From: Nitrospirota bacterium | GTDB taxonomy: Bacteria > Nitrospirota > UBA9217 | Reading direction: 5' to 3' | Length of the DNA stretch: 20,537 bases | NCBI GenBank assembly: GCA_963796285.1 | Contig: CAWCKW010000008.1 | Location: 1-20,537 of the forward strand | Shown here: piece after piece, positions 2,201 to 20,537 of the stretch | Layout: the number at the start of each line of letters is the position of its first letter | How positions within the stretch are numbered: the stretch's first letter is position 1 | Notes under the pieces: model-generated | What the model was told of the DNA's origin: nothing | The model's input: only the letters and a program-made list of their open reading frames with translations | Databases searched by the model: none | Program-made: the position numbers and the translations under genes

Positions 2201-2280
2201 TAGAAAGGATAACTGGACAAAGATCGGATTAAGAGAATTCTTGAGGCCTGTCTATCCTTTGAATCCTGTAATCCTGTCTA
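2201..2280. repeat. Imperfect inverted repeat (GACAGGAT/ATCCTGTC type) at the nuoF-nuoG junction
   Basis: Left arm TAGAAAGGATAACTGGA versus reverse complement of the right arm TAGACAGGATTACAGGA. A related degenerate unit (ATCCTACTATCCTGTC) lies upstream of surE. Confidence 0.55.
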
Positions 2281-3558
2281 AGGTTTTGCTTCCACGGGCA
2301 TTTCTTCTCCCGTATGTGCTTCTCAAAATCCTCCCTGAAATACTTGATCGCACTCTGGAGCGGCTCAACCGCGCCGGGCGCGAGGGCACAGTAGGTGTTG
2401 CCCGGGCCGAGAGTTTGCACTGCTGCGCCAGGATGTCGATATCGCCGGCTCTCACCTCTGCCTTCTTCGATCGCATGGAGAATCTTCTCGATCCAGGGCA
2501 GGCCTTCGCGGCAGGGCGTGCACCAGCCGCAGGACTCCCGTGCAAAAAAGACTTCAGAGGTTATGCACGAACCCGACAGGACAGGTCTTGTCATCGAGCA
2601 TGATCATGGTGCCGGTGCCCAGGCGGCTTCCGGCTTTCATGACCGAGTCGAAGTCCATCTTTACATCGAGATGGTCTGCAACAAGGAAGTCGGTTGACGC
2701 ACCGCCGGGGATCACGCCGCGGAATTGATAGCCGTCCCGCATGCCTCCCGCGTGCTCCTCCAGCAGTTCGCGGACTGGTGACGCCCATGGGCAGTTCCCA
2801 TGCTCCCGGCTTCTTCACCCTGCCGCTTACGCCGTACAGCTTGGTCCCGCCGTCGGGGCTCTTGCTCAGACCCTTGAACCAGTCAGCGCCGTTGTTCACG
2901 ATATGCGGCATGTTCGCGATCGTCTCGGCATTGTTCACGATCGTCGGCCTGCCGAAGAGGCCGCAGACCTGGGGGAAGGGCGGCTTCGCTCTCGGCGTGG
3001 CGCGTTTCCCTTCAAGGGCGTTCAAAAGCGCGGTCTCTTCGCCGCAGATGTAGCGGCCTGCGCTCCCATGGATGCGGAGGTCGAGGTTGAACCCGGAACC
3101 AAGGATATTCTTGCCGAGATAGTTGTGCTCATATGCTTCGGCAATGGCCGCTTCCAGCCGACTTTACCGCCAGCTTGTATGCCCAGCGGATGAAGATAAA
3201 GGCCTGCTCGTGCTTCAATGGCATAGGCGCTGATGATCACGCCCTCGATGATCTGGTGCGGGTCGCCTTCGAGAAGCAGGCGATCCTTGAACGTGCCCGG
3301 CTCCATCTCGTCGGCATTCACGACGAGATATTTGGCGCGGCGCGTTTTCTCCCATGGGAACAAAGCTCCATTTCGCGCCTGTGGGGAAGCCGGCGCCGCC
3401 GCGGCCGCGCAGGTTCGACGCCTTGACGATGTTCTGCACGTCCTGGGGCGACATGGCGAGCGCTTTGCGCACTGACTGGTACCGCCTGCCTTCTCGTAAT
3501 CTTTCAGAGAGAGCGGTTCCTGGCCAGGGCGGATGTTTTTTGTGAGCGGTCGTTCCAT
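2229..3558 (-). CDS. nuoF: NADH-quinone oxidoreductase subunit F (frameshifted as sequenced)
   Basis: Fragments across frames: [91 protein letters not shown] at 3558. The exact stop is uncertain. Confidence 0.92.
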
Positions 3559-3643
3559 AGTAAAATCGTTAAAGTCAGATTCAAGGTTCAGACTAAAGTG
3601 CTGCAGATCAAGATTTTCATAGCCTTTGTCAGTGAATCTGTTT

Positions 3644-4106
3644 CTACTTGTATTTTTCAGTATCTCATCCATCATCTCCGGTGTCACGGGCCCGTACAGG
3701 TCCTCATCCACCATCATGGCCGGGGCGCGGTCGCAGGCGCCGAGGCAGGAGATGGGGAGCAGGGTGAAACGCTTGTCCTCTGTCGTTTCCCCGAAGCGAT
3801 ACCGAGTTTCGTCTTCAGAAGGTCCAGCAGCGGATTGTATCCCATGACCCAGCAGCTGATGCTGTCGCAGACCAGGATCACATGCCTTCCCACCGGCTTC
3901 CGGAAAATGAAGCTGTAGAACGTGGCAACGGCGTCGAGTTCGTCGGGCGTCATGTCGAGCATGCTCGCAACGTCCTTGAGGCTCTCATCGGAGACCCAGC
4001 CGCGGTGATGCTGAACGATGTTGAGCGCGTCGATGGACGCGGACTGCTTCGTGACGCAGTGAGCCAGTTCGGCGTTGATTTCCTGTTTTTCTTGTTCGGT
4101 GAGCAT
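3644..4106 (-). CDS. nuoE: NADH-quinone oxidoreductase subunit E (frameshifted as sequenced)
   Basis: [27 protein letters not shown], then [16 protein letters not shown] in a shifted frame. Probable end KKYK-TAG at 3644 if one A is missing from a homopolymer run. Confidence 0.9.
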
Positions 4107-4558: not shown

Positions 4559-6314
4559 TCATCTGTCCAGGTCCGCCAATATAAAATCAATGCTCCCGAG
4601 GATCGCCAGAAGGTCGGCGATCATCAGTCCTTTGCTGATCTTCGGCACCATCTGCAGATGCGGGAACGAAGGCGTCCGGATGCGCGTCCGGTAGGACATG
4701 GTGCTGCCGTCGCTGATCAGATAGTAGCCGTTGTTGCCTTTGGTCGCCTCGATGCCCATGAACGCCTCGCCGGCGGGATCACCGGCCCCAGCTTACGCCG
4801 AGGAAATGGGTGATGAGCGTCTCGATGTCGTGCATGGTGCGTTCCTTGCGGGGAGGGGTCGTGAGCGGATGGTCGGACTTGTAGGGCCTGCGGGCATGTT
4901 GTTCACGCACTGTTCGATGATGCGCAGGCTCTGGCGCATCTCCTCGACGCGGACCACGCCGCGGTCGTAACAGTCGCCATGGGCTGCCGTGGGAATATCG
5001 AACTCGAAGTTCTCATAGCCGGAATAGGGCCGTTTCTTTCTGAAGTCCCAGTCGAATCCGCAGGCGCGGAGCCCGGACCGGTCACGCCCCATTCAATGGC
5101 CTCGTCCATCGTGTAGATCCCGACGCCTTTGGTGCGGGCCTTGAAGATGCTGTTCTGCATCACGATCGTGTCGTATTCCTTGAGCCGCGGAGGCAGGTAG
5201 GTGAGAAAATCGCGCACGAGCCGGTCCCATCCCTTCGGCAGGTCCTGGCCACGCCGCCGATCCGGAACCATGCGGGATGCATGCGGCCGCCGCAGACCGC
5301 CTCGACGATGTCGAAGATGCGCTCGCGGTCCGTGAACATGTAGAACACCGGCGAGAGCGCGCCCACGTCCTGGGCAAAGGTGCCGTACCAGACGAGATGG
5401 CTCGCGATGCGGAAAAGCTCCGCCATCATGACGCGGATGGTCTTGGCCCGGTCAGGCACCTCGATGCCCGCGAGCTTCTCCACGGCAAGGCAGTAGGCCA
5501 TGTTGTTCATCACGCCGCCCAGGTAGTCGACGCGGTCGGTGTAGGGAATGTAGGTGTGCCAGGACTGGCGCTCGGCCATCTTTTCGGCGCCGCGGTGGTG
5601 ATAGCCGATGTCGAGCACGGAGTCCTTGATCTCCTCGCCGTCGAGCTGCAGGATGAAGCGGATCAGGCCATGGGTGCCGGGGTGCTGGGGACCGAGGTTC
5701 AGGAACATGAAGTCCGTGTCTTCCGTCTCGCGCTTCATGCCCCAGTCTTCGGGCCTGAACTTGAGCGCCGTCTGTTCGGCCTCTTCTTTTTCATCAGGCA
5801 GCTGGAACGGGCCCATCTCGGTGGCGCGCGCAGGATGGTCCTTGCGCAGGGGATGGCCTTTCCAGGTCGGCGGCATCAGGATCCTTTTCAGATGCGGGTG
5901 GCCGTCGAACTTGATGCCGAACATGTCCCAGACCTCGCGCTCGTACCAGTTGGCTGACTGCCAGAGATTGGTGATCGTCGGAAGGGCGGCGGATTGCTCC
6001 GGTGAGCGGGACCTTGATGCGGATGTCCTCGTTCCGGTCAAAGGAAAGGAGATGGTACACGACCGTGAAGTCGCTCTCCGGCTGGTCCTGGCGATGATTG
6101 CGCACGCGCTCGTCGATGGCCGTGAGGTCGTAGAGCATCTTATAGGGACGGTCGATGGCTGTCTTGAGATGGCGCAGAACATCGTGACCTTGTCGCGCGA
6201 CACCCAGAGCGTGGGGATGTCGTCGCGCGTGGGCTGTACCGCGAGAATGGAGTCGCCGAAGGCGGTTTTGAGGTCATCGATGATGGGATTGTTTGGGGCA
6301 TAGAGTGAATGCAA
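4559..6314 (-). CDS. nuoCD: NADH-quinone oxidoreductase fused subunit C/D (frameshifted as sequenced)
   Basis: [64 protein letters not shown]-terminal DFILADLDR. The C and D motifs are in one open frame. Start uncertain. Confidence 0.93.
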
Positions 6315-6403
6315 ATGTCAAATTACAAAGCTCAGAGCTTAAAGGAATGTTAAAACATCAATGTTTAATTTGATAATTTTGAGTCTGTATTTAATATCCT
6401 TTT

Positions 6404-6478
6404 TCGTCATGCCGGACTTGATCCGGCATCCAGCGGTTTTATGAAAAGACTGGATTCCTGCCGCCGCAGGAATGACGA
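6404..6478. repeat. REP-like GTCAT...ATGAC double-hairpin element
   Basis: Termini TCGTCAT/ATGACGA. Internal hairpins ATGCCGGA-CTTGA-TCCGGCAT (6409-6429) and ATTCCTGC-CGCC-GCAGGAAT (6454-6473), joined via ATCCAG/CTGGAT. Confidence 0.85.
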
Positions 6479-6561
6479 GCTTAAGAGAAATAGCAATGAA
6501 AATCAAACTATATTTTATAGTTTGATTTGTACTTTGGATTTTGAAATTTGAGCTTATTCCC

Positions 6562-7175
6562 CTACACTTCATCAGGCGATCTCAGGATAGTGGCCTTTTG
6601 CCGCTCTTCCCGCTTCAGGTCCCGCATGCACGGTTTCTCCGGCCGCACGATGCCCTGCGGCCCGGCGACCCAGCTCAGGGGCCTGCGTTCCTTGCCGACC
6701 TGTCACGCAGCATCAGCAGGCCTTCCATGAAGGCCTCGGGCCGGGGAGGGCAGCCGGGCACATACACGTCAACGGGCATGAACTTGTCCACGCCCTGGAC
6801 CACGCTGTAGATGTCGTACATGCCGCCGGAGTTGGCGCAGGAACCCATGGAGATGACCCATCGCGGCGCCATCATCTGTTCATAGAGCCGCTTGATGACC
6901 GGCGCCACCTTGATGAACACCGTACCGGCGACGATCATCATGTCCGCTTCTCGCGGCGTGCCGCGGATCACCTCGGCGCCGAAGCGCGCGATATCGTATT
7001 TGCTCGTCAGACTCGTGGCCATTTCAACATAGCAGCAGGAGAGGCCGAAGTTGAACGGCCAGATGGAGTTCTTCCTCCCCCAGGCGAGCATGTCCTGCAG
7101 CGTCGTGAGGATCACGCTTTGGCGCATCGCGTCTTCCGCGGAATCGTGGTCAGGTCTGGTGAAAGAGTAGTTCAT
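6562..7175 (-). CDS. nuoB: NADH-quinone oxidoreductase subunit B (one frameshift near 6700)
   Basis: [37 protein letters not shown]. The tail [10 protein letters not shown]...LRSPDEV-TAG is in a shifted frame. Confidence 0.95.
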
Positions 7176-7854: not shown

Positions 7855-9201
7855 CTATTTTGCGGTTGTACCGCCATACCGCTCATTGTAGAACTTCTGG
7901 ATCTTTTCAAGCTGCTCTTTGGTCATGCCCTTGGTATACCACTCGTGCCTGACATCGGTCTCGAGGTATTTTTTCACGATCTCGCTATAGAGCTCCGGAC
8001 CGGCAACGTTCTTTACCTCGGGCAGGAATTCGGTATAGAAGTTCTTGGCCACATCATAGATACCATGCCACCACGCATAATCGGGGCCGGACATGGCCGC
8101 GCCGTGCCGTGCTCTTCTGCCTTCATGGTGCCACAGCTCCCAGTATATCCAGTCCAGCTTGTCGTCGAAATTCGCCTTTGTAAGCTTGCCCTTGTCCATC
8201 AGTTCCTGCCTGATCGCGGTCGCGGGTTTTGCGAATTTGTCGTCATACAGATTGACAAGATTATCGAACTGTTTATAGAACCCTTCCACGAAGGGCGTTG
8301 AATGGCAGCTGCTGCAGACGTTCTGCATGGCAGCGCGCTTTTTATCCGCGTTCTCCATCTTCTTCGAAATGGGCGGCCGAAGCGTCCAGCTGATCCGGGC
8401 GCCTACGTCATGGGTCACTGCCTGTGTCGGCGTGGCGCTCATATGGCAGGTGGCGCAGGTGGGGGCGGCGGAATAATCCTGTCCAACGACCCACTTGTCC
8501 TTGTGCATGTTCATCCGTTCCTTGTTGGCCTCATACAGGATCCCGTGTTTTGATTCCTGGTATACTTCCATCTGCGGATGGTCAGGGCCGAGATGGCATT
8601 TACCGCAGGTCTGGGGCTCCCGCGCCTGCGCCTTTGAGAAACTGTGGCGCGCATGGCAGGCCGAGCAGGACCCCTTGGAGCCGTCAGGGTTTATTCGGCC
8701 GATGCCCGTGTTCGGCCAGCTGTTGGTATCGAGCTTGCCATTTGCAAGGACCTTGACAATGCCGCCATGGCACTGCAGACAGCCGACCGCAACGGCCTCC
8801 TGTCCACCCACGACCTCGCCGAGATAGTTGTCCGCGGAATTGAGGATGTCCCCGGCTTTGGCATGGTGGCTCTCGGTCATCTCCTTTTCTTCCTTAGCGT
8901 GGCATTTGCCGCAGTCCTTGGGAGTGACGAGGATCGCGATCGTATATCCATTGTGCTCCATGGCATCAGGATCGGACTTCTCCGCCTTGTGGCAGGTGTA
9001 GCAGTCTACGCCTTTTGCCGCGTGGGTGCTCAGCTTCCATTCCGTGACAAAGGCTGGTGACTGTGCCTCGTGGCAACCTATGCAGGCCTGACCTTCTTTT
9101 GATACTTTTAGCTTTGCCGCTTCGCCCGACCCGGCATGGAACGTCATGACCATGCTGAGCACCACTGATAGAACAATGATCGATACCTGGTTCCTTTTCA
9201 T
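7855..9201 (-). CDS. Exported octaheme cytochrome c, hydroxylamine oxidoreductase (HAO)-like family
   Basis: Signal peptide and eight CxxCH motifs (CIGCH, CYTCH, CGKCH, CLQCH, CSACH, CGKCH, CATCH, CSSCH). HAO-family segments CHLGPDHPQxEVYxESKHG, APTCATCHM and GPDYAWWHG. Confidence 0.85.
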   Translation of the reverse strand: MKRNQVSIIVLSVVLSMVMTFHAGSGEAAKLKVSKEGQACIGCHEAQSPAFVTEWKLSTHAAKGVDCYTCHKAEKSDPDAMEHNGYTIAILVTPKDCGKCHAKEEKEMTESHHAKAGDILNSADNYLGEVVGGQEAVAVGCLQCHGGIVKVLANGKLDTNSWPNTGIGRINPDGSKGSCSACHARHSFSKAQAREPQTCGKCHLGPDHPQMEVYQESKHGILYEANKERMNMHKDKWVVGQDYSAAPTCATCHMSATPTQAVTHDVGARISWTLRPPISKKMENADKKRAAMQNVCSSCHSTPFVEGFYKQFDNLVNLYDDKFAKPATAIRQELMDKGKLTKANFDDKLDWIYWELWHHEGRRARHGAAMSGPDYAWWHGIYDVAKNFYTEFLPEVKNVAGPELYSEIVKKYLETDVRHEWYTKGMTKEQLEKIQKFYNERYGGTTAK

Positions 9202-12643: not shown

Positions 12644-12982
12644 CTACGAACTTTTCGCGCAGCACTTGATGATATTCGTATCGCTCACCTCAATGAGCCC
12701 GCGTTCGACGACGGAACCGATCTCTGCCAGGATGATATTGATCATTTCCTCTGAATCCACAATTTCGATTTTGACCGGGAGCGTGGTGGAGAGCTCCAGG
12801 ATCTTGGCGGTATGGAGTTTGCCATGGCTCCCGTAACCTGCAACACCACGGAACACGCTGGCCCCGGCTATTTTCCTTTGCGCCAGAATGTCCAAAATCG
12901 CTTCATACACGGGCTTGCCGTGGAGCTTATCGGTTTCATCGATGTAGATCGTCAGCTTTTTTGCCGGGCCGGTTTTGAGCAT
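12644..12982 (-). CDS. DUF190-family (PII-like fold) protein
   Basis: LTIYIDETD...GKPVYEAI...GASVFRGVAGYG...LSTTLPVKIEIVDSEE. AAGGAG RBS before ATG 12982. This family is a common crcB neighbour. Confidence 0.88.
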   Translation of the reverse strand: MLKTGPAKKLTIYIDETDKLHGKPVYEAILDILAQRKIAGASVFRGVAGYGSHGKLHTAKILELSTTLPVKIEIVDSEEMINIILAEIGSVVERGLIEVSDTNIIKCCAKSS

Positions 12983-13028
12983 GAAATACTCCTTACTTAA
13001 AGTATGATGAGCTATAAAGTCATAATCC

Positions 13029-13106
13029 ACCGCGGAGGCGCTGAGACGCTGAGAAATACATATTAACAATAAAAAGATTTTCTCTGCGTCTCTGCGTCTC
13101 GGCGGT
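13029..13106. repeat. Intergenic inverted repeat (GAGACGCAGAG type)
   Basis: 28-nt arms ACCGCGGAGGCGCTGAGACGCTGAGAAA and TTTCTCTGCGTCTCTGCGTCTCGGCGGT, 24/28 complementary, with an AT-rich spacer. Confidence 0.85.
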
Positions 13107-13132
13107 TAAATTAGAATTGTCGCATTCATCAA

Positions 13133-13507
13133 TTATATGCTTTTCGCGATCACCTCACCGAGCTTCAATGCGATAAACCCGGCGGAGACGCTCAACACGA
13201 CATTTAATCCCGCGATCAGCCATTCGCTGTCTTTCAGGAGCGCGCCGGTTTCGTACTCGAAGGTGGAGAAGGTGGTATACGCGCCGAGAAATCCCACGAC
13301 GAGCAGCAATCGCCATTGCGGGTTCACCATGAACCGTTCGGTGAAGAGTGACATGAGCAGGCCGATGAGGAAGCTGCCGCTCACGTTGATCACGAATGTG
13401 CCGAGGGGAAAGCTGCGGCCCCACCGCTGGCCGATCCAGAGGGCGACCCCGTACCGCGTGATCGCGCCGAGGAATCCGCCTATGCCTATGATGAAGATAT
13501 TTGCCAT
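13133..13507 (-). CDS. crcB: Fluoride efflux channel Fluc/CrcB
   Basis: GGFLGAITRY, FPLGTFVINVSGSFLIG, GFLGAYTTFSTF. ATG at 13507. Confidence 0.96.
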   Translation of the reverse strand: MANIFIIGIGGFLGAITRYGVALWIGQRWGRSFPLGTFVINVSGSFLIGLLMSLFTERFMVNPQWRLLLVVGFLGAYTTFSTFEYETGALLKDSEWLIAGLNVVLSVSAGFIALKLGEVIAKSI

Positions 13508-13779
13508 CGTTTTCCTGTCCCTGAATGTTCCATTCATAGCAGAAGGCACGCCTCAAGTCAATGAAAATGGTCATGCTTTCCAAAGCTGGAGCTTGCCCTC
13601 GAATTCATAATCGGGGGGGTATGACGAAATAACGAGCAATTAGGGACTCTGTCCGGGAGGCGTTGTATCCAGGGGCAAGGAACAGCGCGGCAATGATGAC
13701 AGTGGCAGGCTAGGAACATATCATTACCAAAGCGCAACTTAGAGCCGTCAGTCCTGCTGATTTATCGGCCAACGGGTGC

Positions 13780-15741: not shown

Positions 15742-15909
15742 ATGAAATGCAAGTCCTGCGGCAAGGAAGTCGAACTTCGGATCGGCTGACGCACCATCAC
15801 CTTTCGCTGCACGGTGTGCGGCAAGGATTTTTCGATCAAGGAATATTCGGACCAGGTCGATGATGAGACGTGGGAAAAGATCTCCCGCCGCCCCTGCAAC
15901 CGCGCGTGA
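15742..15909 (+). CDS. Small dual-CxxC selenoprotein, 55 aa (UGA at 15787-15789 read as Sec)
   Basis: GAGG RBS, then MKCKSCGKEVELRIG-U-RTITFRCTVCGKDFSIKEYSDQVDDETWEKISRRPCNRA. A SECIS-like hairpin follows the UGA. Absent from the ORF track. Confidence 0.8.
15800..15826 (+). promoter_or_regulatory. Candidate SECIS element of the small CxxC gene
   Basis: CCTT-TC-GCTGCAC-GGT-GTGCGGC-AAGG. Apical G is 24 nt after the UGA. Confidence 0.7.
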
Positions 15910-16011
15910 AGCCCGGTTTCCACCGATGAGTCGTATCACTCCACTCCCGCCGTTGTTCTTTTTTTTAGAATAATTACGCAGGCTCGCCTGTATGACAAAA
16001 TTAACTTTATG

Positions 16012-16054
16012 TTGACAATTACATAAAAATATAATAATATTTGCATATATTATT
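16012..16054 (+). promoter_or_regulatory. arsR promoter with overlapping operator palindrome
   Basis: TTGACA-17 nt-TAATAT. The 22-bp palindrome AATAATATTTG/CATATATTATT (16033-16054, one mismatch) covers the -10 box. Confidence 0.7.
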
Positions 16055-16069
16055 TCGGAGGTAGCATTT

Positions 16070-16411
16070 ATGATCCCCCTGGACAAGCGCATAGATATGC
16101 TCAAGGTTATTGCCCATCCCATTCGAATCAAAATCCTCGAAGATTTGACGCTCGGAGTGAAGTGTGTGAGCGACTTCGAAGAATCCCTCGACATTAGCCA
16201 GCCTAACGTATCACAACATTTGACCCTTCTTCGGACGAATGGAATTGTAGATTTCTTCGTTGACGGCAGGCTCAAGTGCTACTTTCTGAAAGAACCCCTT
16301 ATCCCCGACCTCCTCGAAGTTCTCAAAAAACAGTATGAAGAAGATATCCCGGCTCCTGCTTGCTGTCCGGTAACGAAAAGAGGGACCTACCCCGGTGAAA
16401 GGAGACGTTAA
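16070..16411 (+). CDS. ArsR/SmtB-family transcriptional regulator, Cys-rich
   Basis: LKVIAHPIRIKIL, KCVSD, ISQPNVSQHLTLLR, C-terminal ACCP. GGAGG RBS. Confidence 0.92.
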   Translation: MIPLDKRIDMLKVIAHPIRIKILEDLTLGVKCVSDFEESLDISQPNVSQHLTLLRTNGIVDFFVDGRLKCYFLKEPLIPDLLEVLKKQYEEDIPAPACCPVTKRGTYPGERRR

Positions 16412-16533
16412 TCTGAATGAAGAAAGACTCTCAAACTTGCAATACCGGGTCGACAGATGTCTGTCGCCTGACGGGGCTCTTCATCAAAGAAAGCGACAGG
16501 GTTTGACATTTTAATTTCATTGAGGAGGCCTCT

Positions 16534-16878
16534 ATGCAAAAAGAGATTGTAATGTTTCTTTCCACGACTCCCTACACCTTTGAGAACACGCATACTATTT
16601 TCAAACTAGCGGAGTCTGCTCTGAAGAAGGGGCACCGGGCCAGACTTATTGCCTCGGGCGATGGAGTCTTCTCGATTGTGAAGGGACAGGTACCTCAGGC
16701 GCTTTCCGAGCTGGTAGACCTTGTGGGAAAAGGTCTCAAGGTCGATATCTGAACAGGCTGCATGAAAAGCCGCGGTCTTGCGGCTGACGATTCCATTGAG
16801 GGTGGTGAGATGAGCTCGTTGAAGGGGCTTTTCAATGTTGTGCAGACAAAGCCTATATTCTTAAATTTCGGCATATAA
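16534..16878 (+). CDS. DsrE/TusD-like sulfur-relay selenoprotein, 114 aa, U73-x-x-C76
   Basis: DsrE-type N-terminus (TTPY, SGDGV). The frame continues past TGA 16750-16752 as VDI-U-TGCMKSRGLAADDSIEGGEMSSLKGLFNVVQTKPIFLNFGI-TAA. It ends 10 nt before the next ATG. Confidence 0.88.
16768..16785 (+). promoter_or_regulatory. Candidate SECIS element of the DsrE-like gene
   Basis: AGCCGC-GGTCTT-GCGGCT. Apical G is 22 nt after the UGA. Confidence 0.75.
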
Positions 16879-16888
16879 GGGGGCGATT

Positions 16889-17242
16889 ATGGGGAGCATA
16901 AGCATAATTCTAAGAAGGCCGCCGTACGGGACCGTCGATGCCTCGGAGGCGATCCGCCATGCTCTCGGGGGAGCGACCAATGATATGGAAATAAAGTTGC
17001 TCCTTGTTGACGGGGGGGTCCATGCGGCGAGAAAAGGACAGGATGTATCTGAGACGAAATATTTGAATGCAGGAGACGGTATTCAGGATTGCATTGACAT
17101 GGGAGTTGCGGTCTATGCAGATGAAGCTTCATTGAAAAGGGAACAGATCGGCAATGACTGCATCATCGAGGGCGTAACGGTTACGAATGGCCCAGAAATC
17201 GCAGCTATGATCGGCAAAACAGATACAACGATTGTTTTTTAA
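16889..17242 (+). CDS. DsrF/TusC-like protein
   Basis: ILRRPPYGT...SEAIR, LLVDGGVHAARKGQ, VYADEASLKRE, ending TTIVF. Confidence 0.8.
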   Translation: MGSISIILRRPPYGTVDASEAIRHALGGATNDMEIKLLLVDGGVHAARKGQDVSETKYLNAGDGIQDCIDMGVAVYADEASLKREQIGNDCIIEGVTVTNGPEIAAMIGKTDTTIVF

Positions 17243-17253
17243 AGGAGACTATC

Positions 17254-17535
17254 ATGCTTGTGATCATCAAAAGCGCACCGGATACGACTGATGGGGCACG
17301 AGGCTTGACCCTTGCGAAGGAAGGCGGGGCCGATCTTATCCTGCTGCAAAACGGGGTCTATTTCGCGCAAAAGGAACGGCTTGGGTCTTTCCCCGGCGCG
17401 GTGTATGTGCTGGATGACGACAAGAGGCTCCGGGGTATCAAGGATTCAGAAATAGATGCCCGAGCGAAAGCCATTGATTACGACAAGCTGACAGACATTA
17501 TTACGGGAGGCGATAAGGTGGTCGGATTGTTCTAA
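17254..17535 (+). CDS. DsrH/TusB-like protein
   Basis: MLVIIKSAP, LILLQNGVY, VYVLDDDKRLRGI, IDYDKL; 93 aa. Confidence 0.85.
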   Translation: MLVIIKSAPDTTDGARGLTLAKEGGADLILLQNGVYFAQKERLGSFPGAVYVLDDDKRLRGIKDSEIDARAKAIDYDKLTDIITGGDKVVGLF

Positions 17536-17560
17536 ATCATGAAGTACAAGGGGAGGACAT

Positions 17561-18751
17561 ATGGCAAGGATCGTTGTGTTAGGGGGATCGTTCGGGGGAT
17601 TGACAGCTGCCTTTGAACTCAAGCGGCTGCTCGGCAAACAGGCGGATGTTACCGTGGTGAGCGACGACGACCGGTTCGTGTTCCTGCCGTCGCTGCCGTG
17701 GCTGATCATGGGATGGAGGAAACCGGAGGACATCACGCTCAAGATTAGTGAAATTCTGAAGCCGAAGGGGATCGAGTTTGTTCATGATGCTGCAAAGCAG
17801 ATCGATGCTGATTCATCGAAGGTCATCACTGCGAAAGGAAAAGAGCTTTCCTATGATCATCTCGTCATATCAACAGGCCCTCATCTTGCCTTTGATGAGA
17901 TTCCCGGCCTCGGACCGGATAAAGGATATACAGCCTGTACCTTTACGCTCGACCACGCGATTAAGACAGGAGAAAAATGGAAGAGCCTGCTAGAAAAGCC
18001 CGGACCAATCGTTCTTGGCTCTTCACAGATGGTCTCCTGCTTTGGACCGTCCTATGAGCTCGCATTCGAGATGGACGCCGAACTGAGACGGAGAAAGATG
18101 CGGCACAAAGTCCCCATCATCTATCTCACATCGGAGCCCTATGTTGGGCACATGGGCGTCGGCGGGCTCGGCAATTCAAAAACCTTTATAGAGTACGAGT
18201 TCGCTGAGCGGGATATTAAACCAATAGTGAGCCAGGCTATCGAGGAAGTCACTCCGGGAGAGATCAAATTAAAAGACGGTACGAAGCTCCCGTTCAAGCT
18301 AGCCATGATCGCACCGCCGTTCAAGGGTGTGCCCGCAGTTGCGCCGCTTGGCAATCCAAGAGGCTTCATCCCGGTGGATAAGAACTACCGACACTCGAAG
18401 CATAAGAACATCTTTGCCATTGGTGTTGCGATAGCGATTGCGCCGCCTGAGGTTACGCCGGTGCCCACGGGAGTTCCGAAAACAGGATTCATGACCGTCA
18501 AGATGGCGAAGACCGCTGCAGCGACCATCGCATCTGATATTACCGGCAAGACACCGCCGCTCGCGGACGAACTCGGCGTCATCTGCCTCATGGACATGGG
18601 AAACACTGCTGCTTTCATGAAGGCGTACCCGGTTCTTCCTCCGAGACAAAGTACTTATACAAAGAAGGCGATCTGGGCGAAGTGGATGAAGGTCGGATTC
18701 GAAAAGTATTTCTTATGGAAAATGAAAAGCGGATTGAGCAATCTGCCATGA
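17561..18751 (+). CDS. sqr: Sulfide:quinone oxidoreductase-like flavoprotein
   Basis: VVLGGSFGG FAD-binding motif, FLPSLPW, SCFGPSYE, PPFKGV, VPKTGFM, VICLMDMG, C-terminal KVGFEKYFLWK. Confidence 0.85.
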   Translation: MARIVVLGGSFGGLTAAFELKRLLGKQADVTVVSDDDRFVFLPSLPWLIMGWRKPEDITLKISEILKPKGIEFVHDAAKQIDADSSKVITAKGKELSYDHLVISTGPHLAFDEIPGLGPDKGYTACTFTLDHAIKTGEKWKSLLEKPGPIVLGSSQMVSCFGPSYELAFEMDAELRRRKMRHKVPIIYLTSEPYVGHMGVGGLGNSKTFIEYEFAERDIKPIVSQAIEEVTPGEIKLKDGTKLPFKLAMIAPPFKGVPAVAPLGNPRGFIPVDKNYRHSKHKNIFAIGVAIAIAPPEVTPVPTGVPKTGFMTVKMAKTAAATIASDITGKTPPLADELGVICLMDMGNTAAFMKAYPVLPPRQSTYTKKAIWAKWMKVGFEKYFLWKMKSGLSNLP

Positions 18752-19019
18752 AAAAAAAGAGATACCGAAACTGCACGCTGTTTTTTGCGAGGGCTCTTCC
18801 ATTCCCACGCGGTTCGAGATCCTCAGTCACTATAGATCAGGTGCATTGACCGTCAACAAGATTACCGCGAATCTAGGTATTCCAACGCTAAGTTATCAAG
18901 ACGCGAAGAAGGGTTATGAGTTACTTCGTGTTTTGGTGTGGCCTGAGGCTAGCTATCTATGTTGCAAGTTTTACCCTCTCTGGTTATTGCGGACAGTCCA
19001 CCCTTGACTCAAGAATTTA

Positions 19020-19047
19020 TTGACATTTACTAAATAAATATTACAAT
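19020..19047 (+). promoter_or_regulatory. Candidate promoter of selD
   Basis: TTGACA-16 nt-TACAAT, 9 nt before the ATG at 19057. Confidence 0.55.
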
Positions 19048-19056
19048 TCAAATATT

Positions 19057-20103
19057 ATGGAAATCAAACTCACACAACTTTCAAGCTGCGCTGGTTGAGC
19101 GGCAAAGTTCAGCCCTGCTGAACTGTCCCAGGTACTGGGACAATTGCCGAAGATCATGGACCCGAATGTGCTTGTGGGCTATTCGAATGCAGACGATGCG
19201 GGTGTTTACCGCGTATCGGACGACCTTGCGATGGTCTTTACCGCTGATTTTTTCACTCCCATCGTCGATGACCCGTACTGGTTCGGTGCGATCGCGGCCG
19301 CAAACTCGCTGTCCGATGTCTACGCGATGGGCGGGAAGCCGCTCGTCTCCCTGAACATCGCATCGCTTCCCCCGGGCCCGGAGTTCGTCGAGATCAACAA
19401 ACGGATCATGCAGGGCGGCATCGACAAGATGACCGAGGCCGGGGTCGCCATCATCGGCGGTCATACGGTCAAGGACAAGGAGCCGAAATTCGGATATGCC
19501 GTGCTGGGTTCCATCCATCCCGATAAAATACTCGATAACGCAAAAGCGAGGCCGGGTGATGCCCTGATCCTGACCAAGATGATCGGCACCGGCGTGATCT
19601 CAACAGGGATCAAGTCCGGGAAATGCAGCGCAGCGACCGCGGACGCGTTCACCAAATCGATGGCAATGCTGAATAAACGTGCGGGCGAGATCATGCTCGA
19701 AGTGGGCGTCAGTACGGCCACGGACATCACGGGCTTCGGTCTGATCGGCCATTTGAACGAGGTGCTCACTGCGAGCAAATGCTCGGCCAGACTCCACGCG
19801 CGCCGCGTCCCTGTTTTCGAGGAGGCGGTAACGTTGGCAGAGAAGGGCGTGGTGCCGGGCGGCACGAAGGGCAATTTGCAGAACTATGATCCTTTTGTAG
19901 AGTGGAGCAGCGATGTTTCCATGACCGATCGTCTCCTGATGAACGACGCACAAACGTCAGGCGGTCTATTGATATTCGTGCCTCAGGTCAGAAAGAACAA
20001 GCTCATTATGGCCCTGCAGAAAGAGCATATCCTGGCGGCCCATATCGGCGATGTGCTCGAAGAAGATGAAAAAGGACCAAAGCGGATCTTCGTGGTGAAA
20101 TAA
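19057..20103 (+). CDS. selD: Selenide,water dikinase SelD, Sec-containing (U14), 348 aa
   Basis: MEIKLTQLSSCAG-U-AAKFSP is in frame with ORF 19144..20103 (DDAGVY, DFFTPIVDDPY, ANSLSDVYAMGG, GGHT, TDITGFGLIGH, DAQTSGGLL). TGA at 19096-19098. Confidence 0.95.
19106..19142 (+). promoter_or_regulatory. Tandem hairpins after the selD UGA; candidate SECIS
   Basis: AGTTCAGC-CCT-GCTGAACT (19106-19124) and TGTCCCAG-GTA-CTGGGACA (19124-19142), both perfect 8-bp stems. Confidence 0.65.
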
Positions 20104-20537
20104 ATGGACGCCACCTTTACGGTCTTTCTGGCACTGGTCGGCGCATCCGTCGGTTTTCTCTCGGGCCTGCTCGGGATAGGCGGAGGCATCGTCATGTTTC
20201 CGCTCTTGCTCTACGTGCCGCCGCTTCTGGGTTTCAACGGAATAGATGTTAAAAGCATCACCGGCCTCACGATGATCCAGGGCTTTTTCTCCGCGCTCAC
20301 GGCGATGTTCTACTACAAAAAGAACGCCCTGGTGAATAAATCACTGGTCCTTACGCTCGGCTTTTCCCTGTTTCTCTCGTCACTGATCGGAGCGCTGGTG
20401 TCGAAGAAGATACCGGACGGACCTCTGCTTATGGTCTTCGCGACGCTGGCATTGATCGCGGCGGCGATGATGCTCATTCCCCGAAGTTACCATCAGGACG
20501 AACTGACCGAGGAACACGTTGTTTTCCACAGGACCAC
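20104..20537 (+). CDS. TauE/SafE (TSUP) family transporter, 3' end outside the window
   Basis: The ATG directly follows the selD TAA. MDATFTVFLALVGASVGFLSGLLGIGGGIVMFPLL..., several hydrophobic segments, open to the window end. Confidence 0.88.
   Translation, partial: MDATFTVFLALVGASVGFLSGLLGIGGGIVMFPLLLYVPPLLGFNGIDVKSITGLTMIQGFFSALTAMFYYKKNALVNKSLVLTLGFSLFLSSLIGALVSKKIPDGPLLMVFATLALIAAAMMLIPRSYHQDELTEEHVVFHRT

Follow-up and report, generated by a model that had tools for sequence, protein, structure and literature searches.

The window analysed here is the entire contig CAWCKW010000008.1 (C8 below; 20,537 nucleotides) of a Nitrospirota assembly of 13 contigs (3.58 Mb, 96% complete, 5% contaminated), and from position 15742 to the contig end it carries eight genes, all on the + strand, which we identified from a list of open reading frames (ORFs), their translations and Pfam and NCBIfam profile searches. 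At the centre of this region, a DsrEFH-type trio of small genes whose E subunit is read through a selenocysteine (Sec, U) codon stands between an arsR gene and a sulfide:quinone oxidoreductase (SQR) gene. We read this arsR-dsrE(U)FH-sqr block, with a probability of roughly 0.6, as a relay from sulfide to sulfane sulfur in which Sec would be the carrier residue and which is loosely linked to a housekeeping selD. A sequence-only reading of the same DNA had placed all eight genes in a single ArsR-controlled module. Its gene identities, confirmed by profile and structure-sequence matches, and the common orientation of the genes held up, but the single module gave way to three units (aspS-CxxC, arsR-dsrE(U)FH-sqr and selD-tauE), and the best-supported account is that deletions brought them together in a variable, ArsR-governed sulfur and selenoprotein island. 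The features of the region, with positions in the window, are these:

15742-15909, + strand: CxxC-U-CxxC small selenoprotein, 55 amino acids (NF041197, 62.3 bits; cut-off 40)
16012-16046, + strand: arsR promoter (TTGACA, 17 nucleotides, TAATAT) and overlapping imperfect palindrome (16023-16046)
16070-16411, + strand: arsR, ArsR/SmtB-family regulator, 113 amino acids (NF033788, 66.4 bits; cut-off 55)
16417-16506, + strand: remnant of a Cys-type DsrE-like gene, 29 codons (similar to L014:6635-6952)
16534-16878, + strand: dsrE, DsrE-like subunit with Sec73, 114 amino acids (Pfam DsrE, 46.1 bits)
16889-17242, + strand: dsrF, DsrF/TusC-like subunit, 117 amino acids (Pfam DsrE, 53.9 bits)
17254-17535, + strand: dsrH, DsrH/TusB-like subunit, 93 amino acids (Pfam DsrH, 37.9 bits)
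17561-18751, + strand: sqr, sulfide:quinone oxidoreductase, 396 amino acids (E 1.7e-99 to solved SQR 3hyv)
about 18748-19007, + strand: decayed second ArsR-type gene (similar to L031:9152-9532)
19020-19047, + strand: selD promoter, sigma-70-like (11/12 consensus matches)
19057-20103, + strand: selD, selenophosphate synthetase with Sec14, 348 amino acids (TIGR00476, 356.4 bits; cut-off 125)
20104-20537, + strand: tauE, TauE/SafE (TSUP) permease, 3' part off the contig (PF01925, 73 bits)

Selenocysteine codons and the SQR-linked DsrEFH trio

In-frame UGA codons are found at 15787-15789 in the CxxC gene, 16750-16752 in dsrE and 19096-19098 in selD, and all three genes are, as had been noticed from the letters, missed or shortened in the table-11 ORF list (DsrE is cut to 72 amino acids, SelD is begun at an internal TTG at 19144 and the CxxC gene is absent). 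The TGA position is kept in homologues of independent assemblies for CxxC (5/5) and SelD (15/15), and TGA occupies the active-site position in all 56 DsrE homologues at 41% identity or above; one additional DsrE match, with 28% identity, has Cys at the Sec position. When 301 genomes of the phylum were sampled, 88 of the 92 site-spanning DsrE matches at 40% identity or above carried TGA and the remaining four a true Cys codon. In alignments, a true Cys stands opposite the Sec of DsrE in four homologues of the Cys type, as it does in a dsr-linked paralogue of this genome. This Sec falls at residue 73 of the window protein in the motif U-T-G-C, the homologues as a whole forming two paralogue types with the motifs D-I-U-T-G-C and Y-L-U-G-G-C. 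Sec lies at residue 16 of the CxxC protein, between two CXXC motifs in 5/5 homologues, and at residue 14 of SelD, where S-C-A-G-U is kept in 15/15.

The machinery for Sec decoding is present in the genome: selA and selB are adjacent at C12:140804-144557, and ARAGORN calls three tRNA-SeC genes (C3:325141-325234, C12:134656-134754 and C12:1201220-1201310), of which only C12:134656-134754 is near selAB, 6 kb from selB. Together with the conservation across assemblies, this identifies the UGAs at 15787, 16750 and 19096 as Sec codons, as had been proposed, and not as chance or sequencing errors. Sequencing error is ruled out by the conservation of TGA across assemblies and not by contig C8 alone, given that the nuo genes on this contig show frameshift-type breaks. 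The nuoF-like and nuoC/D-like genes are each spread over several ORFs (2232-3717 and 4906-6314; Complex1_51K and Complex1_49kDa pieces), which suggests indel errors in the contig.

A hairpin follows each of the three UGAs in folds, in agreement with the sequence-only reading. The one in dsrE (16768-16785, +19 to +36 from the UGA) has seven pairs kept in 21 sequences, a G-G-U-C-U-U loop and compensatory changes at two pairs of the 21-sequence alignment, and thus shows the features of a bacterial selenocysteine insertion sequence (SECIS), namely a hairpin about 15-20 nucleotides after the UGA, an apical-loop G and covariation. The hairpin of the type-B DsrE paralogue is conserved, with no compensatory change. 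The CxxC hairpin (15806-15822) and the structured region in selD (19100-19149) come from single-sequence folds only, and of the three only SelD folds better than shuffled sequences (z -4.5, against -0.55 for CxxC and -1.14 for DsrE). Because an Rfam scan gave no SECIS match, its sole hit being a chance plant-miRNA match (E 0.075), folds and alignments served to assess the hairpins.

The trio shows the E-F-H order, with Pfam families DsrE, DsrE and DsrH all above their gathering scores, and Sec stands where the E/D subunit would have its carrier Cys. Its neighbours are arsR and sqr rather than dsrAB/dsrC or tusA/yeeE. As had been remarked for the window, dsrA and dsrC gave no match on C8; they are found instead on contig C13, which carries dsrA, dsrB, dsrC and a separate Cys-type DsrH/E/F trio beside dsrC, indicating that the Sec trio is a distinct, SQR-linked paralogue (dsrA on C13 is, like the nuo genes, in two pieces). 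The Sec DsrE of the SQR-linked trio occurs in about 80 of the 301 sampled genomes by hand count. In a public protein collection, all 120 matches listed (of 222) cover 61-63% of the DsrE query, residues 1-72, and among these the DsrE records end at the UGA, most being 72 amino acids in length. Designed pentatricopeptide repeats, the top PDB sequence hits of DsrE(U), were rejected as low-complexity artefacts.

By sequence, the SQR is genuine. It matches solved enzymes over nearly its full length (E 1.7e-99 to 3hyv and 2e-97 to 3sy4), and the Cys residues in VSCFGP and ICLMD align with those of 3hyv and 3sy4, so that the redox pair is in place. Towards the C-terminus, the part in which membrane-binding helices would be sought, the alignment reaches residue 396 of the 430 in 3hyv, and there the window protein stops. 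The gene has no in-frame UGA, and the protein scores 104.2 bits with the model of the type III selenoprotein subtype (NF049943; cut-off 525), placing it outside that subtype.

Neighbourhoods across the phylum and among strains

An SQR-seeded search with one genome per species gave 80 loci (L numbers; 64-97% identity), onto which the window proteins were placed by tblastn. The genes dsrE, dsrF and dsrH lie directly before sqr in 55 of the 70 loci having at least 1.5 kb upstream, and an ArsR of at least 60% identity is found upstream in 53 of the 65 having at least 3 kb. By contrast, selD is within 8 kb of sqr in 15/80 loci, in at least five different arrangements, and in 8 of the 40 loci flanked by 7 kb or more on each side (6 of the 33 that also have dsrEFH). 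The comparison of neighbourhoods that the sequence-only reading had called for therefore upholds the joining of dsrEFH with sqr, and an enrichment of selD that is far above chance for a single-copy gene, but not selD as part of the block, since 32 of the 40 fully flanked loci are without it. Where present, selD adjoins sqr downstream in five loci (L010, L012, L035, L044, L045) and upstream in two (L039, L047), and in the remaining eight it is 2-7 kb from the block. It is followed by tauE in 13/15; the two others, L012 and L062, end at or within about 0.7 kb after selD.

What stands between sqr and selD varies. An MMPL/RND-like transporter and a LolA-like protein are found there in five loci (L014:9538-13591, L031:9645-12754, L055:9417-12577, L058:9996-14502, L062:9215-13847), a DsrE_2 protein and a DUF1302-like outer-membrane protein in L058 only, and a NifS-like class-V aminotransferase, possibly a cysteine desulfurase or selenocysteine lyase, in L054 (9220-10344). 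A second type of ArsR, intact, follows sqr in L031 and L058. Its decayed counterpart in the window begins with an ATG overlapping the sqr stop and loses its frame in an A8 run, the similarity extending over about 42 residues (20/42 identical to residues 14-55 of L031:9152-9532). Likewise, the remnant at 16417-16506 keeps 16/26 residues identical to the C-terminus of L014:6635-6952, a 106-amino-acid Cys-type DsrE-like gene that is intact in L014, L021, L032, L034, L041, L057, L062 and L064.

The same assembly holds two variants of the C8 stretch, C1:85651-103373 and C9:100-17742, which are 95% and 93% identical over about 10 kb and probably represent co-binned strains. Both have the order aspS-CxxC-arsR-selD-tauE, with arsR ending 44-49 nucleotides before selD and a Shine-Dalgarno sequence present. 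The dsrEFH-sqr stretch of the window (16411-19056, 2.65 kb) has no counterpart in C1, C9 or the rest of the assembly; the cassette comes and goes. The C9 copy of selD is fragmented into three. Identity between C8 and C1 is 99.5% over selD-tauE and only 86% to the left of it, a step that could reflect recombination or an assembly join. The sqr-selD arrangement is nevertheless real, because L010 and L045, from independent assemblies, have the same junction and the same selD start context. The tauE gene is full length in C1 (259 amino acids), where unrelated beta-oxidation genes come next, so that the cluster ends at tauE.

In relatives, the arsR operon takes up further genes and has up to three Sec genes. 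A TsoC-like Sec protein of about 89 amino acids (N-D-P-x-G-x-x-U, here N-D-P-M-G-K-R-U; 33.8 bits, cut-off 45) comes right after arsR in L027 (6682-6948), L013 (4523 onward), L022 (5835 onward) and others, and a second TauE also occurs. Between arsR and dsrE, beside the trio, there may be a secreted, signal-peptide rhodanese with TGA in its active-site loop I-U-M-F-D-K-R-S (L049:6424-6876, L052:6422-6871, L080:6371-6808). In L055, the order is arsR, tauE2, a rhodanese-domain ORF and then sqr, the rhodanese ORF being in the DsrEFH slot. This repertoire of rhodanese, TauE and Sec proteins fits sulfane-sulfur trafficking.

The CxxC gene follows another partner. It is present in 128 of the 301 genomes (119 above the cut-off), nearly always with one TGA, and lies directly downstream of aspS in 23/30 loci, while an ArsR is downstream in only 6/30. 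Its membership of NF041197 is clear (the score exceeds 40 bits and the Sec stands centrally, flanked by a CXXC on either side), but its inclusion in one module with arsR, as earlier suggested, was rejected because the conserved partner is aspS; the small selenoprotein would travel with aspS and be a bystander in this region. Just upstream of aspS are a DUF190 gene and crcB (fluoride channel; 12647-13549), and a multihaem cytochrome gene is found at 7858-9201.

ArsR, selD and what the relay would carry

The arsR promoter (TTGACA and TAATAT spaced by 17 nucleotides, 16012-16040) shares part of its sequence with an imperfect 10-4-10 palindrome at 16023-16046. Searched at two mismatches, the pattern has a single match in the window and none in 100 shuffles. 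At five mismatches or fewer from the consensus, it is found upstream of 49 of 60 same-type arsR genes and in 2 of 1200 shuffled regions, and we regard it as the probable ArsR operator on these pattern counts. The same search found it in 2 of 56 regions upstream of dsrE (L039 and L088) and in none of 16 upstream of selD, and the region upstream of selD in the window has no operator match. ArsR control of selD, a further part of the single-module proposal, thus finds no support in the window, where selD has its own promoter with 11/12 consensus matches. The -10 element of this promoter (19020-19047) ends nine nucleotides ahead of the ATG, which no Shine-Dalgarno sequence precedes, suggesting that the selD message is leaderless or nearly so. 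In relatives the link between ArsR and selD does stand: an ArsR of the window type (81-88% identical) is directly before selD-tauE in C1, C9, L012 and L039.

Could selD, then, be in or near a selenoprotein-rich ArsR regulon so that selenophosphate rises when the regulon is induced, with no selenium passing through DsrEFH? The four arsR-selD-tauE arrangements read as operons, and the number of Sec genes in relatives' arsR operons would supply the demand. In L039, selD-tauE lies between arsR and dsrE, with an operator before dsrE, and L088, a locus that begins within tauE and has its own arsR and selD beyond the locus edge, likewise has an operator before dsrE; in both, dsrEFH-sqr has its own operator right after selD-tauE. 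Moreover, the selD near sqr is the sole selD in 10/10 genomes carrying it there. However, the window selD has escaped ArsR control and most cassette genomes keep selD elsewhere, which leaves such coupling of supply and demand rather unlikely. In L039, an in-frame TGA is found in the TauE that follows selD (5882-6721), at residue 14, a position held by Ser in the window protein; this TGA could be either Sec or an error.

The selD counts speak to the role of the gene itself. Each of 15 genomes checked has one selD, and the view of the island selD as an extra specialised copy was rejected on this ground. In the five genomes without selD near sqr, the sole selD is elsewhere and of another lineage, with 44-52% identity and no arsR or tauE within 1.5 kb (5/5), and the window type is the only selD type in its assembly. 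selD is a housekeeping gene.

The ArsR protein has four Cys residues (Cys32, Cys70, Cys98 and Cys99) that are invariant in 59/59 sequences. Cys32 aligns with a Cys of the solved ArsR 8qkf and not with that of BigR/SqrR; aligned to 3pqj and 6o8k, the window protein has Glu in the column of the alpha-2 Cys. Assignment to the persulfide-sensing BigR/SqrR subfamily was rejected for the missing alpha-2 Cys, and the scores with the BigR model (NF040642, 49.1 bits; cut-off 155) and the TsoR model (NF045707, 32 bits; cut-off 115) leave the protein outside both families. As a working guess, ArsR senses sulfur species through another set of Cys residues. A metalloid response, in which As(III), Sb(III) or tellurite/selenite would be sensed through Cys32 and the Cys98-Cys99 pair and the operon would detoxify thio-metalloids, draws on this invariant triad with its vicinal pair and on the alignment of Cys32 with 8qkf. 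Near ars genes, operons that begin with arsR and also encode small thioredoxin-like proteins and permeases are often found. Since the window and the annotated flanks show no arsB/acr3, arsC or arsM and all cargo genes belong to sulfur-handling families, we consider a metalloid response extremely unlikely.

The sulfide-to-sulfane-sulfur relay that we prefer would work as follows. SQR would oxidise sulfide and pass the electrons to quinone, and the sulfane sulfur so made would be taken up by a DsrEFH/TusBCD-like carrier with Sec in place of the acceptor Cys, held as an Se-S adduct and passed on to cytoplasmic acceptors. The arsR-dsrE(U)FH-sqr operon would be autoregulated, ArsR binding the palindrome over its own promoter and being released when the site formed by Cys32 and Cys98-Cys99 is modified, most plausibly by reactive sulfur. 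The sole selenophosphate synthetase and a TSUP anion permease, selD(U)-tauE, would be read from the operator-free promoter in the window. Formation of the complex, direction of sulfur flow, ArsR ligand and TauE substrate are what we infer, beyond the gene identities, Sec codons, conserved synteny, operator sequence and separate selD promoter that the analysis shows.

Several observations count against this relay. The three carrier proteins score below the NCBIfam cut-offs for TusD/C/B (TIGR03012, no hit; TIGR03010, 35.4 against 94.15; TIGR03011, 40.3 against 49.2), and no sequence match of the trio to solved DsrEFH/TusBCD was found, the best real match being YchN (E 0.015). Because of these misses, a complex-forming, sulfur-passing hetero-oligomer is argued for from family membership and gene order. 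In the alignments, ArsR is missing the defining Cys of the persulfide sensors BigR and SqrR, and a metalloid or selenium ligand would fit its three-Cys pattern too. Through several rearrangements selD is retained near the block (15/80 loci, adjoining it on either side in seven), and in several genomes selD-tauE is headed by an ArsR of the same type; neither is explained if the relay handles only sulfur. Finally, YedF above its cut-off and PF11823, the usual SelD-associated carriers, were not found in this 96%-complete genome.

The last of these points are also those on which a selenium relay would build, with TauE importing selenium species and SQR and the Sec DsrEFH passing selenide or Se(0) to SelD, thereby protecting selenium assimilation in sulfidic water. 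Such a relay would use the varied order in which selD-tauE accompanies sqr and the failure to find YedF and PF11823. A DsrE-type domain beside SelD has precedent, as YedF-like fusions adjoin selD in a second phylum, where SelD is found in 141 of 151 genomes: the neighbours in 30 SelD loci examined there include four YedF-like TusA+DsrE fusions (compare an excerpt of PMC5322559), two TusA-only ORFs and three PF11823, besides three NifS-like, five LysR, one YedE-type and two TauE neighbours. In addition, selenium is described as reducing ubiquinone via mammalian SQOR in the available part of a review (PMC12549746), which cites Lee 2024 for this, and that of PMC13188914 treats as unresolved which donor supplies SelD with selenium in vivo. 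Sec by itself, by contrast, does not imply a selenium cargo, since in Sec-rich anaerobes the families that handle sulfur often have Sec in the place of Cys (portions of PMC1088965 and PMC13188914). Most fully flanked loci do without selD, as counted above, and SelD in the cassette genomes belongs to one or the other of two lineages. The window selD is provided with a promoter of its own that has no operator. SelD uses selenide directly, as known from its enzymology, so that an oxidising SQR step would be unneeded. Feeding of selenium to SelD by one module, as the sequence-only reading had it, is not supported either, since C1 and C9 retain selD and lack the cassette. We therefore hold the selenium relay to be decidedly unlikely. 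A wider version, in which the three-Cys ArsR senses reactive Se or S and governs a selenium-dependent regulon, and in which DsrE(U)FH, fed by SQR (selenide or mixed Se/S) and TauE-type permeases, is the sought-after donor that supplies SelD with selenium in those sulfidic anaerobes where YedF and PF11823 are lacking, appears to us very unlikely.

Comparison with known systems

Each of the families is known. For the combination of a Sec DsrEFH with SQR in one operon, no description was found in the literature searched, in line with the sequence-only reading, which knew of none; Haft and Tolstoy 2025, possibly covering related neighbourhoods, was not included. A text search of the BSepDB paper (PMC13326102) gave no occurrence of DsrE, Nitrospir, Tso or operon. 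The combination is widespread in the phylum yet hidden by UGA-shortened annotation.

The trio resembles DsrEFH/TusBCD in its three adjacent small genes in the order E-F-H with a reactive residue at the position of the carrier Cys, and differs by its Sec carrier residue and by its scores below the TusD/C/B cut-offs. The partner is also different: dsrAB/dsrC for type I, tusA/yeeE for type II and sqr here. A 2026 paper on type II DsrEFH (PMC13293266), as far as its available text goes, deals with trios of the Cys type accompanied by tusA and yeeE and set a threshold of 80 bits for each of the three genes, which the 72-amino-acid DsrE fragment would probably fail; the word selenocysteine has zero occurrences in a text search of that paper. 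Most Thermodesulfovibrionia, according to an excerpt of PMC11033732, 'possess dsrFH, but no dsrE'. It is plausible that truncation at the Sec codon is behind this missing dsrE, and surveys may misjudge the dsrE content of this clade. Read correctly, the block would add a route from sulfide to sulfane sulfur in organisms that are generally counted among the sulfate reducers or disproportionators.

A 'DsrE-like' UxxC selenoprotein family (PF02635) has been listed since the Sargasso Sea selenoproteome of 2005 (parts of PMC1088965 and PMC13188914). It shares the Pfam DsrE fold and U-x-x-C with the window protein, a likeness drawn from its description and not from sequence, but the tables available from the two papers do not place it in an E-F-H trio as subunit E, nor do they connect it with SQR. 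The available part of PMC13188914 also lists NF041197 along with Tso, the 'three selenoprotein operon'. The latter, under the ArsR-type TsoR, is likewise headed by an ArsR and rich in selenoproteins, and relatives of the window have the N-D-P-x-G-x-x-U protein and the Sec rhodanese; the window is without TsoA, TsoB and TsoC, and its ArsR stays far below the TsoR cut-off (32 bits against 115). YedF, a fusion of TusA with a DsrE-like domain, is linked to SelD in an excerpt of PMC5322559, and is thus another DsrE-family protein with a C/U-x-x-C motif near selD. By contrast, the window system is built of three subunits rather than a fusion, has no TusA domain and has a loose selD linkage (8/40 loci). 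The recurring arsR-selD-tauE arrangement is a testable candidate for regulated selenium activation.

Sulfide-responsive sqr operons run under CstR, BigR or SqrR. These and the window operon have in common a small repressor, SQR, sulfurtransferases and a TauE-type permease (the TauE in relatives of the window), although the regulator here is without the alpha-2 Cys and there is no persulfide dioxygenase. The Sec DsrEFH stands in place of the rhodanese or TusA-type carrier of those operons, and the natural pair of Sec and Cys carriers offers a test of what selenium contributes to persulfide transfer.

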